Source: Escherichia phage vB_EcoM_phAPEC6
Direction: 5' to 3' (one strand)
Sequence record: MK817115.1
DNA: 64,000 nt
The position numbers and the translations under genes are program-made. Positions 3 to 14,189 of this stretch are shown here, one piece after another. Under the pieces are notes generated by a model. That model worked only from the letters and a program-made list of their open reading frames with translations. It was not told the DNA's origin and did not search any database. The stretch's first letter is position 1; the number at the start of each line of letters is the position of its first letter.

Positions 3-1145
3 ATGTTACCTTTTGCAAGAATGGTTAAGTACGGGAATATTGCACCTGCACAAATCGGTAGATATAAAATATACAGTTCATCTTCTTCACTATTTTTATT
101 GGATACCCAAAAACACAATTTGTACAGTACATCGAACATTAATTATACTAGTGGTACAGGTAATGTTGAGCCTAAATTTGTGTTAAGTGCAACTAATGTT
201 AAAAGATTATTACTATCTGATAATAGTTGTGCAATGCAAATATATGAAGATATGAATGGGCGTGCAGCGATGTGTGGCACAAGAACTGCATATAGTGGGG
301 TTGCAAATGATAATGTACTGGTATGGACGGATTGCACTACATGGTTCACAAATGTAGGGTTGAATGTATCAGATATTCAGTACATGTCTGGTTTTTATAA
401 TCTGAAACTAAACATAGTTATGAATAATGGTGATTTGTGGTGTAGTGGGAAAAACAACACTACTACTATGTCATCATTTGGTAATAGCACAAATATCGAT
501 TCATTCAATCAGTTTACCAAAATAACAACAATATCAAATGTTATTAAAGCCACCGGGAATATATACTTATGTGCAGATAATACTTTATGGGGATGTGGTT
601 TTAACTCTTACTATCAGTTAGGGACAGGTAATCAAACATCCAGTATTAATTTGATTATGATGGCTTCTAATGTTATCGACTGTAATGTTGGTCTTCAAAA
701 TACTTATTACTTGACTAATAATAAAGAACTTTATGGATGTGGTACACAATTTGGTACAACTTACGGGAATGAATTTGGAACAGGAAGGCAGGGAACATCA
801 ATACAATATAAGACTCCTACTATAATTTTCACAAATGCAGATGGTCTGGCTGTTTGTGTCGGTAATATGTCTACTCATGTTATTCAATATGATAAAGTTT
901 TTAGTTCTGGTAATAATGCCCTTGCACAGTTGGGTGTAGGCAACCGTGACAATGTGTACACATATACACAATCATTTGATAATTTCAAAATGGATTCTTC
1001 TATAGTACGTGCAAACGTTGGAACATTGATAATGACAGCGGACAATAAGTTATATTACAGTGGGAGAAATGATGTTGTTATGGGTGGAACAAGCACACAA
1101 TACACGACGGTTTTCAGTGAAGTTAATATGTCATTTATACAATGA
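3..1145 (+). CDS. Array member 1: RCC1-like beta-propeller repeat protein with conserved N-terminal leader MLPFARMVKYGN
   Basis: ATG at 3 followed by the shared leader; repeated GxNxxGQLGxG-type blades (LWGCGFNSYYQLGTGNQT, VFSSGNNALAQLGVGNRD); upstream cassette lies outside the window. Confidence 0.85.
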   Translation: MLPFARMVKYGNIAPAQIGRYKIYSSSSSLFLLDTQKHNLYSTSNINYTSGTGNVEPKFVLSATNVKRLLLSDNSCAMQIYEDMNGRAAMCGTRTAYSGVANDNVLVWTDCTTWFTNVGLNVSDIQYMSGFYNLKLNIVMNNGDLWCSGKNNTTTMSSFGNSTNIDSFNQFTKITTISNVIKATGNIYLCADNTLWGCGFNSYYQLGTGNQTSSINLIMMASNVIDCNVGLQNTYYLTNNKELYGCGTQFGTTYGNEFGTGRQGTSIQYKTPTIIFTNADGLAVCVGNMSTHVIQYDKVFSSGNNALAQLGVGNRDNVYTYTQSFDNFKMDSSIVRANVGTLIMTADNKLYYSGRNDVVMGGTSTQYTTVFSEVNMSFIQ

Positions 1146-1217
1146 ATTAATGCCAGTACTTGATACTGGCTTTTCTTTTTTGTATTAAATATAGTATAAT
1201 GAATAAAGGAGGGAATT
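1146..1217 (+). promoter_or_regulatory. Array cassette: terminator hairpin + promoter-like box + RBS
   Basis: Hairpin GCCAGTA-CTTGA-TACTGGC followed by a T-run; invariant GTATTAAATATAGTATAATGAATAA; AAGGAGGG 7-8 nt before ATG. Confidence 0.7.
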
Positions 1218-2360
1218 ATGTTACCTTTTGCAAGAATGGTTAAGTACGGAAATGAAGCACCAGAACCAAAACCTCTATTTAAAAATAGATTACAAGCAAA
1301 TTATAATACTCGTTTTTATTTGCATGTTAATGGTGACTTGTACTGGTATGGTTCATCTTCATTTGGACAAGGTGGTAATGGTTCATTACAATCATCCACC
1401 GTATGGACCCGTGTGAATAATAATATTGAACGTTACTGGGGTGGTGTTCTTGGTTCCATTGCCATTAAGAATGATGGAACTATTTGGTTCACAGGTGCTA
1501 GTATAGTAATGCCACAAATCGGAACAAATACAAATGGGGTTTGGATTGATGTAACCCAGTACTTCACTGATTTTGGTGTCAGTGCTGATGATATTGATGG
1601 TATTGCTGTTGGACAGAATTTGCGTGTATTTTTGAAAAATGGAAAATGGTTCTACTGTGGTGCTGGCGAGGGTGGTGTATTTGGTAACGCATCAACAGCT
1701 AATGTCACATCGTTCAGATACAGCACTATAGAAAATGTTAAAAGTTATGGCTGTTCTTTGCTCAGTACTGGGTTAGTTCTTGATGATGGTTCCTATTGGT
1801 ATGCAGGAAATACTGTTGCTCCTGGTAGTACAACAACATCAAATATATTAAGTTTTACAAAAGACAATACGATCACCAATGCTATACAAGCTGTAAATAC
1901 ATACCGTACTTCATATATATTTCTTAATGATGGTTCAGTGAAGGTTGCTTCACCAAATGCATATGGTCAAGCTGGTGTAGGTAGAGTATCAGCAGTACCA
2001 ATGAGTACATTAATTCCCAATTTATCATTCCAAGGTGAAATAGAGTTGGTGGGTGGTTTATCCAACAACGAAGGGAATGGATGTGTTGTTAAAAATAATA
2101 ATAAGTTATATACTTGTGGTCGAAATACCTATGGTGCATGTGGTGTTAATCAAACATCCGAAAATATACTAACTTTCACCGAAATGGTTCTTGATGCATT
2201 AGAAGGAAGACGAATTTCAGGCTTCGTAATTGATAATTTCTATTCAATGATAATTGATGAAAATAACAATTTGTATATGAGTGGTTTGGCTGAACTTGGA
2301 AATGTTCCAGCCGTGAGAGTTCCAACCAGAGTCCCCGATTCCCTTCTACCGTGGAAATAA
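1218..2360 (+). CDS. Array member 2: RCC1-like beta-propeller repeat protein with MLPFARMVKYGN leader
   Basis: Shared leader; blade motifs LYWYGSSSFGQGGNG, LYTCGRNTYGACGVN; own cassette upstream. Confidence 0.85.
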   Translation: MLPFARMVKYGNEAPEPKPLFKNRLQANYNTRFYLHVNGDLYWYGSSSFGQGGNGSLQSSTVWTRVNNNIERYWGGVLGSIAIKNDGTIWFTGASIVMPQIGTNTNGVWIDVTQYFTDFGVSADDIDGIAVGQNLRVFLKNGKWFYCGAGEGGVFGNASTANVTSFRYSTIENVKSYGCSLLSTGLVLDDGSYWYAGNTVAPGSTTTSNILSFTKDNTITNAIQAVNTYRTSYIFLNDGSVKVASPNAYGQAGVGRVSAVPMSTLIPNLSFQGEIELVGGLSNNEGNGCVVKNNNKLYTCGRNTYGACGVNQTSENILTFTEMVLDALEGRRISGFVIDNFYSMIIDENNNLYMSGLAELGNVPAVRVPTRVPDSLLPWK

Positions 2361-12939: not shown

Positions 12940-13019
12940 TACTATAAAACTATGCCAGTACTCGATACTGGCTTTCTTATTTTGGATTAAATATAGTATA
13001 ATGAATAAAGGAGGGAATT
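12940..13019 (+). promoter_or_regulatory. Array cassette: terminator hairpin + promoter-like box + RBS
   Basis: GCCAGTACTCGATACTGGC hairpin, GATTAAATATAGTATAAT, AAAGGAGGG. Confidence 0.7.
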
Positions 13020-14189
13020 ATGTTACCTTTTGGAAGAATGTTAAAGTACGGAAATATTAAACCAACTCTTCCTGAAATAAAGAAATTGGATGGTAGTCAA
13101 TTACATGTCGGATTACTTTATAGTACAGGGAATATGTACATGCGTGGTTCTGGTTCGAACTATAAATTAGGTACAGGGGATGCTAGTGATGTATTAGGTG
13201 GTTGGGTACATGTACCCTATGAAGTTGATGATTTTTGGGCGTGTGTATCCGGTACATTAATAAAGACTGTTGATAATAAATTATATTGTGCAGGTCTATA
13301 CATGGGTGGATATTTTGGGGCTAGTGGTTCATATGTTAACTGGACTGAAGTAACTTCATTATTTGTAGGTATTGACGTGTCGCAAATAAAGAATATAGAA
13401 TTTACGTCAGCGGGGACTTCCGGTAGTACACTAATATTGATGTTAGATGGTCGTTTATATGGGTTCGGTATGAACAGTAGATCTGAGTTAGGTGTTAATA
13501 ACAAAGTTGTATCTCCCATTCTTATAGATACTGAGGTAAGTGCAATAGGAGCACATAAGTTAGGCGGTTCATCGTTCCATTATATAAAAGGCGGTAAGTA
13601 CTACAGATGTGGAACATCGGTTGGTAGTAATATTGGAAGTTCTTCTTTAACTACTTTTACGGTATTGAGTATTCCTGATAACGTTATATCTATGCAAATA
13701 TTATATGACAACGTACAGTTATTATGTTTAGGAAGTTCTGGATATAGTATCTATATGGCTGGTTCTAATGATTATGGTGGAAGAGGTGTTGGTGGTTCTA
13801 CTGTTTACACTACATTCAGGAAAATAGATCTTACAGGATTTGGTGTTGTTCCCAGTGAAATACTATTTGAAAATGCTGGAAATGGTTATGTTAATATATC
13901 AACTGATAGTACTGGGGTATATACATGTGGTGGTGGGGCTGGTGTTAATGGTTTAGGTAGACCAACTGATGTGATACCAAGTTCACAGTTGGGTTCGGTT
14001 CAGTTCAGTACTGGAGTAGAACCATCAAATATAAGTCGTGTGTATTCACAGAGTTCGAGTTCTGTTATATATTGTATAGTTAATAATGAATTGTACTGGG
14101 CTGGTAGTAATTCATATTTTACTGATCAAACCACAAATACTGGTACACAATTTTCATTTATTAAGATGAAGGATATGCCTTCTGCTTAG
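13020..14189 (+). CDS. Array member 12: RCC1-like beta-propeller repeat protein with MLPFGRMLKYGN leader
   Basis: Shared leader; paralog of member 9; blades LYCAGLYMGGYFGASG, LYGFGMNSRSELGVNN. Confidence 0.85.
   Translation: MLPFGRMLKYGNIKPTLPEIKKLDGSQLHVGLLYSTGNMYMRGSGSNYKLGTGDASDVLGGWVHVPYEVDDFWACVSGTLIKTVDNKLYCAGLYMGGYFGASGSYVNWTEVTSLFVGIDVSQIKNIEFTSAGTSGSTLILMLDGRLYGFGMNSRSELGVNNKVVSPILIDTEVSAIGAHKLGGSSFHYIKGGKYYRCGTSVGSNIGSSSLTTFTVLSIPDNVISMQILYDNVQLLCLGSSGYSIYMAGSNDYGGRGVGGSTVYTTFRKIDLTGFGVVPSEILFENAGNGYVNISTDSTGVYTCGGGAGVNGLGRPTDVIPSSQLGSVQFSTGVEPSNISRVYSQSSSSVIYCIVNNELYWAGSNSYFTDQTTNTGTQFSFIKMKDMPSA

Follow-up and report, generated by a model that had tools for sequence, protein, structure and literature searches.

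Escherichia phage vB_EcoM_phAPEC6 (MK817115.1) carries, in the 64,000-nucleotide stretch analysed here (the window), a tandem array of 12 paralogous genes whose first 21 bases, termed the leader, are nearly invariant down to their silent positions. We conclude, with a probability of about 0.6, that this invariance is explained by a conserved N-terminal peptide tag, a recombination junction formed by the leader and the cassette upstream of it, and silent-site selection for an accessible translation initiation region, acting together. The silent-site conservation of the leader is far beyond chance. Across the arrays of the Asteriusvirus lineage, strict invariance is confined to a 12-base island (bases 1–12) plus the hexamer AGAATG (bases 16–21) and does not extend over the whole leader, because the flanks and codon 5 are polymorphic and codons 7–12 vary at the rate of the gene bodies, i.e. 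of the coding sequence outside the leader.

Leader conservation in the window

A motif search of the window with the 21-base ATGTTACCTTTTGSAAGAATG returned 12 matches at no more than one mismatch, all on the + strand, 11 of them exact and one with a single mismatch (starts at 3, 1218, 2434, 3614, 4823, 6063, 7325, 8132, 9356, 10640, 11830 and 13020); the chance expectation in shuffled sequence is 0.01 matches. Every copy consists of the start codon and the following six codons of an open reading frame (ORF) of 244–398 amino acids (aa), and the 12 ORFs are arranged head-to-tail from 3 to 14189. The products share the N-terminus MLPF[AG]RM[VIML][KN]YGN. The original prediction, made from the letters of the window, had claimed that the first ~21 nt are essentially invariant across the 12 members, third codon positions included, and that the differences present mostly change the amino acid. 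Both statements were borne out. Inside the 21 bases, codon 5 is split 6:6 between GCA (Ala) and GGA (Gly), with one silent difference (GCA>GCT at 11830), and at codon 8 the variants GTT, ATT, ATG, TTA and GTA are all amino-acid-changing except GTA; GCT and GTA are thus the exceptions to the rule.

Codon identity was measured over all pairs of members, at positions where both carry the same degenerate amino acid. The same codon was used in 289 of 294 comparisons (98%) at codons 2–7, in 77% at codons 8–15 and in 1784 of 3843 (46%) in the bodies, so that silent variation in the leader does not run at the body rate, the comparison on which the original prediction had staked its claim. Several of the leader codons are, moreover, non-preferred, with shares in the bodies of 27% (CCT), 18% (GGA), 32% (AAG) and 28% (TAC), and Gly11 is encoded by GGR in every copy and never by GGT, although GGT makes up 64% of the glycine codons in the bodies. 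Since the leader uses non-preferred codons, codon bias fails as its cause.

The repeated unit of cassette and leader

A cassette of approximately 66 bases precedes 9 of the 11 members whose upstream region falls inside the window. Its first element is a GC-rich hairpin, GCCAGTAC-loop-GTACTGGC, with a run of T behind it; these terminator-like structures upstream of nine genes are predicted terminators. A promoter-like block, TATTAAATATAGTATAATGAATA, comes next (9 occurrences in the window, all inside the array), then the Shine-Dalgarno (SD) sequence AAGGAGG, a spacer of 5–7 bases and the ATG. The genes at 4823 and 11830 have the SD only, and the leader is still kept in both. Coordinates of the array and its units, all on the + strand, are as follows.

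3..14189, +, tandem array of 12 paralogous genes (ORFs, Pfam, PHROG 4219 and 4474, AlphaFold2, body identity)
Gene 1, ORF 3-1145, +, leader 3..23 (ATGTTACCTTTTGCAAGAATG), a motif match; upstream region beyond the window edge
Gene 2, ORF 1218-2360, +, cassette and leader 1152..1238: hairpin 1152-1170, T tract, block 1185-1206, SD, leader 1218-1238
Gene 3, ORF 2434-3543, +, cassette and leader 2369..2454: hairpin 2369-2387, block 2402-2423, leader 2434-2454
Gene 4, ORF 3614-4810, +, cassette and leader 3547..3634: imperfect hairpin 3547-3571, block 3582-3603, leader 3614-3634
Gene 5, ORF 4823-5992, +, leader 4823..4843: SD only, no cassette; directly after gene 4
Gene 6, ORF 6063-7253, +, cassette and leader 5997..6083: hairpin 5997-6019, block 6031-6052, leader 6063-6083
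Gene 7 (Gly-rich body), ORF 7325-8059, +, cassette and leader 7261..7345: hairpin 7261-7279, block 7293-7314, leader 7325-7345
Gene 8, ORF 8132-9283, +, cassette and leader 8065..8152: hairpin 8065-8087, block 8099-8120, leader 8132-8152
Gene 9, ORF 9356-10531, +, cassette and leader 9290..9376: hairpin 9290-9309, block 9323-9344, leader 9356-9376
Gene 10, ORF 10640-11449, +, cassette and leader 10572..10660: hairpin 10572-10596, block 10607-10628, leader 10640-10660
Gene 11, ORF 11830-12939, +, leader 11830..11850: no cassette; the only silent variant among the leaders of the window (GCT, codon 5)
Gene 12, ORF 13020-14189, +, cassette and leader 12954..13040: hairpin 12954-12972, block 12987-13008, leader 13020-13040
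13th member, diverged, at the array end, 14195..14685, +: hairpin 14195-14217, degenerate promoter block, leader at 14262 (MLPFRRIITSSK)

The promoter-like motifs of the cassette comprise TATAAT or TATAGT, CTGGCA as the only -35-like hexamer (9/12 matches), and TAAATA, similar to ATAAATA, a late-promoter motif described in related phages (PMC5259590). A scan of the window with the sigma-70 consensus gave 77 matches against 74 in shuffles, i.e. no enrichment, and did not single out the cassette promoter; an Rfam scan of positions 1–14800 at E<=1 returned one sub-threshold chance match only.

The 13th member, which the original prediction had not listed, has a leader reading ATG CTA CCC TTT CGA AGA ATT ATC and lacks the YGN; a frameshift divides its body, the second ORF of which lies at 14350–14685. 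The split copy was found in every Asteriusvirus array with a captured right end (SP27, 121Q, PBECO4, EC22.5-2, SD-6 and G17). It would be an old pseudogene, unless frameshifting allows its expression. In gene 10 (10640–11826), too, a stop at 11449 follows 269 aa, and the remaining propeller is found in the +1 frame up to approximately 11826 (...GHKIHGQLGNG...TEYQLPQI*). The ORF has the same length of 269 aa in SP27, 121Q and G17, and the gene may be either a conserved frameshifted pseudogene or a case of programmed frameshifting.

Comparison across Asteriusvirus genomes

The array was compared with those of SP27, 121Q, PBECO4, EC22.5-2 (identical to ECO103), TH47, SD-6 and G17. By megablast, the window falls among the jumbo coliphages of Asteriusvirus, with matches in 36 records; over parts of the array it is 97.5% identical to SP27 and 98.5% identical to 121Q, whereas its identity to PBECO4 is approximately 85%. 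The sample comprised 83 non-duplicate members including those of the window, with bodies in at least 26 ortholog groups. All of them start with ATG TTA CCT TTT except for one with TTC, and at codon 6 AGA is used by 81 members and AGG by 2. Silent changes were counted by parsimony within ortholog groups and set against the number expected from the body rate of each group: one was observed at codons 2, 3, 4 and 6 versus 13.7 expected (Poisson P = 1.6e-5), and 12 at codons 7–12 versus 10.8 expected.

Nucleotide diversity (pi) was computed on 56 unique cassette-bearing sequences. It equals 0 at bases 1–12, where a single haplotype exists, and reaches 0.27 in the SD plus spacer (15 haplotypes), 0.35 at codon 5 (7 haplotypes), 0.06 in the promoter block and 0.58 in the hairpin loop. 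Codon 5 (e.g. window positions 15–17, 1230–1232 and 2446–2448) appears over the genomes as GCA, GGA, GTT, GTA, ACA, GCT, CCA and TCT, with about one change per ortholog group versus 0.35 for an average body codon, and it was seen to differ even among orthologs with ~99% identical bodies. This variability could reflect an unconstrained residue, diversifying selection or recombinational reshuffling. A scan of IMG/VR with the degenerate back-translated leader retrieved two contigs only, one of them 121Q, and added no diversity.

Exchange at the cassette and leader

The order of ortholog groups differs between the arrays, being [18,5,0,4,12,2,6,7,9,10,1,8] in the window, [4,0,5,3,2,13,7,11,14] in PBECO4 and [24,4,0,12,3,5,2,6,9,25,10,8] in G17. 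Megablast matches break off at the repeated unit: that of 121Q stops at 13039, within the leader of gene 12, those of PBECO4-like genomes stop at 10677–10684, just past the leader of gene 10, and that of SP27 begins at 5997, exactly where the hairpin of gene 6 starts. The left flank of the array is near-identical in SP27, 121Q, PBECO4, SD-6, G17 and EC22.5-2 through ATGTTACCTTTT, and sequences diverge at or just past the leader; five different bodies are found behind this unique flank (groups 19, 3, 4 and 24, plus 20 in TH47).

Codons 7–10 occur in the haplotypes GTT AAG TAC (VKY), ATG AAT TAT (MNY), TTT GAT TAT (FDY) and ATT AGG TAT (IRY). These leader haplotypes are discordant with body orthology; when orthologs of different genomes are paired, the haplotype is the same in only 49% of cases. 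In 70 ortholog pairs whose bodies diverge by 0.93% per site, divergence amounts to 17% in the 66 upstream bases, 5.3% at bases 13–45 and 0.36% at bases 1–12. Orthologs are thus less alike here than over their bodies, whereas paralogs are far more alike, a pattern that bears the mark of exchange among the repeated gene heads. These comparisons show cassette plus leader to be the homology block for body exchange, deletion, duplication and conversion, between paralogs and between phages. Gene conversion, one of the options offered by the original prediction, is thereby supported by the discordance of haplotype and orthology, the upstream divergence and the left flank with its five bodies. Its further suggestion of a recombination or priming site held for the former, in view of gene order, breakpoints and flank; for a priming site no evidence was found.

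The tag variants at residues 8–10 were also observed to be enriched by genome rather than by ortholog group: FDY is present in many ortholog groups, only in EC22.5-2 and TH47, and VKY and MNY are the prevailing forms in the window, 121Q, SP27 and PBECO4. Such genome-wise variants may stem from co-evolution with a shared docking partner or from block exchange between phages.

Silent sites and predicted mRNA structure

Because the flanking polymorphism survives exchange and distinct haplotypes share codons 1–4 and 6, the sequence comparison argues for purifying selection on these codons. An RNA structure prediction, suggested as a check in the original prediction, found the native leader codons to be the least structured. 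Among the 288 synonymous versions of codons 2, 3, 4 and 6, the native TTA-CCT-TTT-AGA ranks first in lack of predicted structure over 11 sequence contexts, with a mean ensemble energy of -7.1 kcal/mol versus -10.2 +/- 1.3 kcal/mol for all versions, and each single synonymous substitution raises the predicted structure on average. For most members the predicted minimum-energy structure is a weak hairpin between the SD and CCUUUU.

By the same predictions, the fraction of synonymous variants with less structure than the native version is 0.066 for the array leaders, compared with a mean of 0.40 for 54 other SD-preceded genes of the window, 7% of which are as extreme as the leaders. The fraction is 0.21 for the leaders of Salmonella phage Munch and 0.18 for those of Klebsiella phage fENko-Kae01, and the diverged 13th copy (CTA CCC) has 0.30 and is not minimal. 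Selection on the nucleotide sequence itself, as had been proposed, is thus supported by the zero diversity at bases 1–12, the deficit of silent changes and the first rank among 288 versions. An SD-leader hairpin maintained by covariation was considered separately: an AUGG/CCAU pairing is possible in some Munch cassettes, but members with the SD AAGGAG do not fit, and this candidate was not supported.

The array products and their N-terminal tag

Eleven of the 12 products are RCC1-like beta-propellers, as recognised by Pfam RCC1/RCC1_2 repeats with scores over the cut-off (e.g. 35.9 vs 21.7), by sequence matches in the PDB to UVR8, HERC2 and RCC1, and by an AlphaFold2 model of gene 8 that forms an all-beta propeller (pTM, the predicted template modelling score, 0.82); the propellers match PHROG 4219. 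Outside the leader, the bodies of the array share 9–34% amino-acid identity. The product of gene 7 (7325–8059) is a Gly-rich protein of 244 aa (PHROG 4474) with no Pfam and no PDB match, outside the RCC1-like family, and is kept in 121Q, SP27, G17 and EC22.5-2. As it carries the same cassette and N-terminal tag as the propellers, the tag is independent of the propeller fold.

RCC1-like genes are known in several copies from 121Q, PBECO4 and phAPEC6, and their products were identified as virion components by mass spectrometry in phAPEC6, where several copies were detected (PMC7247149); the single RCC1-like homologue of GAP32 is likewise a virion protein by mass spectrometry (PMC5259590). In databases the array genes are annotated as 'putative DNA condensation protein' or 'regulator of chromosome condensation', and we found no description of the shared N-terminus or the upstream cassette in the literature searched, which mentions these genes only as multiple RCC1-like 'DNA condensation' paralogs.

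Several genera of Rak2-like jumbo phages have the tag peptide, M-[LIF]-P-[FI]-x-x-[IM]-x-x-Y-G-N, whether the body behind it is a propeller or not; outside Asteriusvirus it is found on arrays of homologous genes and is encoded by varying codons.

Salmonella phage Munch and Klebsiella phage fENko-Kae01: MIPF[ATS]R[IM][LIM]xYGN; codons ATA/ATT, CCA/CCG/CCT, TTT/TTC, AGG/AGA/CGT
Cronobacter phage GAP32: MLPF[AS]RI..YG[ND]; codons CCA, AGG
Yersinia phage fHe-Yen9-03: MLPF[SP][IV]I..YGN; codons CCA/CCT
Xanthomonas phage XaC1: MFPIP[IV]IS.YGN; codons CCG/CCT

In Munch, codon identity at codons 2, 3, 4 and 6 is 67% versus 49% in the bodies. Because other genera keep the peptide with different codons, the peptide is the ancient, cross-genus target of selection, and the full base-level invariance is specific to the Asteriusvirus lineage. 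The claim that selection acts 'not only on the peptide' consequently stands for Asteriusvirus and has to be qualified beyond it, as the peptide is the deeply conserved target and the other genera vary their codons. In the model of gene 8, built on an alignment of only ten sequences, residues 1–20 form a low-confidence coil outside the propeller, which would fit a free docking or targeting peptide, albeit weakly. A search of the PDB for a solved phage homologue that would place the tag gave eukaryotic and plant RCC1-like proteins only, and none for the Gly-rich protein.

Explanations for the invariant leader

On the reading that we favour, the 21 bases would be the coding end of a repeated, portable gene-head module (terminator hairpin, T tract, TATTAAATATAGTATAATGAATA, strong SD, and ATG TTA CCT TTT NNN AGA ATG ... 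TAY GGR AAT) that has been fused to many unrelated or highly diverged bodies. The ancient N-terminal tag, possibly a common docking or virion-incorporation signal, fixes the bases that determine the amino acids. Cassette and leader serve as the exchange block, and because this is where bodies are exchanged, all leaders belong to one recombining pool. The pyrimidine-rich Leu-Pro-Phe codons resemble the anti-SD and could pair with the purine-rich AAGGAGG, and the silent positions of codons 2, 3, 4 and 6 would be held at TTA-CCT-TTT-AGA, the version that least sequesters the SD and the start codon. To judge from the folding predictions, such selection for SD accessibility may explain the zero diversity at bases 1–12 between polymorphic flanks. 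Several points weigh against this reading. The RNA-structure argument is a prediction with modest per-codon effects (0.1–3.4 kcal/mol), the 11 folding contexts share one sequence design and count as roughly one observation, and the native codon set is AT-rich like the preference of the genome, with a prior from codon usage of ~0.04. Recombination from a monomorphic pool alone could also yield zero diversity at bases 1–12, and promoter-block positions that look non-functional are near-invariant as well (pi 0.06), which fits homogenisation as well as selection. Furthermore, the Munch clade tolerates silent variation for the same peptide, so that any nucleotide constraint is not universal, and the role of the tag in virion docking is a putative one.

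An alternative explanation is concerted evolution alone, in which gene conversion or unequal crossing-over among the cassette-plus-leader blocks homogenises bases 1–21 and silent-site selection plays no part. Exchange is strongly indicated by gene order, left flank and upstream divergence, and near-invariance extends to the promoter block and the hairpin stems, including positions without obvious function. The terminal copy combines another cassette type with other leader codons (CTA CCC), so that codons co-vary with cassette type, and in Munch the cassette-bearing copies are more uniform (CCA in 5/6) than the coupled ones (CCA in 4/8, CCG in 4/8). We nevertheless consider homogenisation without selection unlikely, as polymorphism persists right beside bases 1–12 (the 15 haplotypes of SD plus spacer and the 7 at codon 5), several long-lived haplotypes that differ at codons 8–10 are identical at codons 1–4 and 6, the members without a cassette carry the same codons, and it would be a coincidence for the native set to be exactly the one of 288 with the least predicted structure. 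Improbable, in our view, is a specific binding or cleavage site in bases 1–21, as RNA or DNA, be it a translational operator for a phage repressor that co-regulates the paralogs or a site for a recombinase, nuclease or primase. The 12-base block of zero diversity is indeed the most conserved segment of the unit, above the -10 element or the SD, and the variable codon 5 between invariant blocks resembles the free spacer of a bipartite site; however, 8 of the 12 invariant bases are already set by the conserved peptide, other genera alter these bases freely while keeping the peptide, no Rfam match was obtained, and no candidate binding protein was identified. Practically ruled out, finally, is an ordinary cause, i.e. 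peptide constraint combined with genomic codon bias, or recent duplication. In its favour, the genome, with 35% GC, is rich in AT, and TTA, TTT and AGA rank high among the codons used for Leu, Phe and Arg, but minority codons recur in the leader, 12 identical TTA-CCT-TTT-AGA sets have a computed probability of ~1e-16 under independent draws from body usage, the low identity of the bodies implies that duplication is ancient, and silent changes fall short of expectation within ortholog groups.

Our preferred combination of tag, junction and silent-site selection can be extended to a plug-in system, which we put forward tentatively and would not rate at even odds. Here, the 12-aa tag would dock any body at a common virion site, the tag DNA together with terminator, promoter and SD would act as a homology arm for swapping, gaining and losing bodies, somewhat like an integron, and the VKY, MNY and FDY variants would reflect co-evolution with the docking partner.

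Relation to known systems

We see no new mechanism in the invariant gene start, but a variant of kinds already known. In T4-type phages, modular shuffling is mediated by PeSL cassettes (promoter-early stem-loops), which combine a terminator and a promoter in one motif and in which crossovers have been located between the -10 element and the ATG (Arbiol et al. 2010, PMC2839356; Comeau et al. 2014, PMC4122927). A strong sigma-70-like early promoter with -35 and -10 elements belongs to this class, as do minicircles excised by recombination between flanking cassettes. Like them, the array cassettes are small repeated intergenic modules that join a stem-loop terminator, a promoter and an SD (activity here being predicted), are concentrated in a variable region, and would be homology patches for insertion, deletion and replacement of flanking genes between close relatives; on sequence grounds, they are repeated composites of hairpin and promoter-like block that end at the SD and start codon, with breakpoints of relatives at the cassettes. 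Unlike in PeSL, the conserved block passes the ATG into coding sequence (12–36 bases), because all cargo genes share the N-terminal tag. In addition, the array hairpin lies upstream of the promoter-like block, the motifs are a late-like TAAATA and TATAAT with a weak -35, and the cargo consists of virion-associated paralogs instead of early ORFans.

The capsid targeting sequence (CTS) is the only conserved part of the diverse internal proteins of T4 (reviewed in PMC3012670). CTS and array tag are both N-terminal tags of ~10–12 aa and the sole conserved part of very diverse virion proteins, the array tag being found on at least 26 body groups including the non-propeller Gly-rich protein, with virion evidence from phAPEC6 and GAP32 homologues only. 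There is no sequence similarity between the two. A T4-type CTS also suffices to direct cargo into the prohead core. The prohead protease of T4 cleaves at the motif L/I-x-E, and a cleavage motif of this type is absent from the tag: in all 12 leaders, residues 1–12 are free of Glu.

It is a general phenomenon that bacterial and phage genes have reduced mRNA structure and selected codons at their 5' ends (e.g. Kudla et al. 2009). The leaders resemble it in that silent sites of the first codons appear constrained so that SD and start codon are accessible, the native codons being predicted to be the least structured around the SD and AUG. They differ in that the same constraint would extend over more than 80 gene copies with unrelated bodies, and would be forced by an L-P-F peptide, the codons of which are anti-SD-like by nature. 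Equally general is the concerted evolution by which gene conversion keeps repeated gene heads alike. Here, as there, paralogs are much more alike in one segment and orthologs differ more in it than elsewhere; the homogenised segment, however, is only ~100 bases long and covers a regulatory region and the first codons.

Neighbouring features

Beside the array, six abutting or overlapping small ORFs (104–141 aa) on the minus strand (15370–17809) encode hydrophobic, apparently membrane-spanning products and seem to form a second tandem family. Further on the minus strand (18713–20599), a 628-aa ORF contains an internal near-exact repeat of ~50 aa (KIKANEVHNNLYNYDKVDYVNSSTKVLITHPVYGDFWQTP...). The GC skew changes sign after the array, from positive (1–14000, + strand genes) to negative in the remainder of the window, where genes lie on the minus strand; transcription of the array thus diverges from that of the genes beside it. 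In fENko-Kae01, approximately 330 bases separate the corresponding array from the annotated direct terminal repeat.

Biological significance

The reading proposed here provides a testable account of how a large and rapidly changing set of virion-associated beta-propellers, currently mis-annotated as 'DNA condensation proteins', is maintained in Asteriusvirus and other Rak2-like jumbo phages. It would carry the concept behind PeSLs, in which regulatory cassettes serve as recombination linkers, on into coding sequence, and would offer a clean natural case of silent-site constraint at the gene start, repeated over dozens of unrelated bodies. The tag is short and portable and, if it is a true virion-incorporation signal, could serve to attach foreign proteins to, or package them in, the particles of jumbo phages. 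The main value lies in the testable idea of a tag-plus-cassette plug-in for the virion proteins of jumbo phages.

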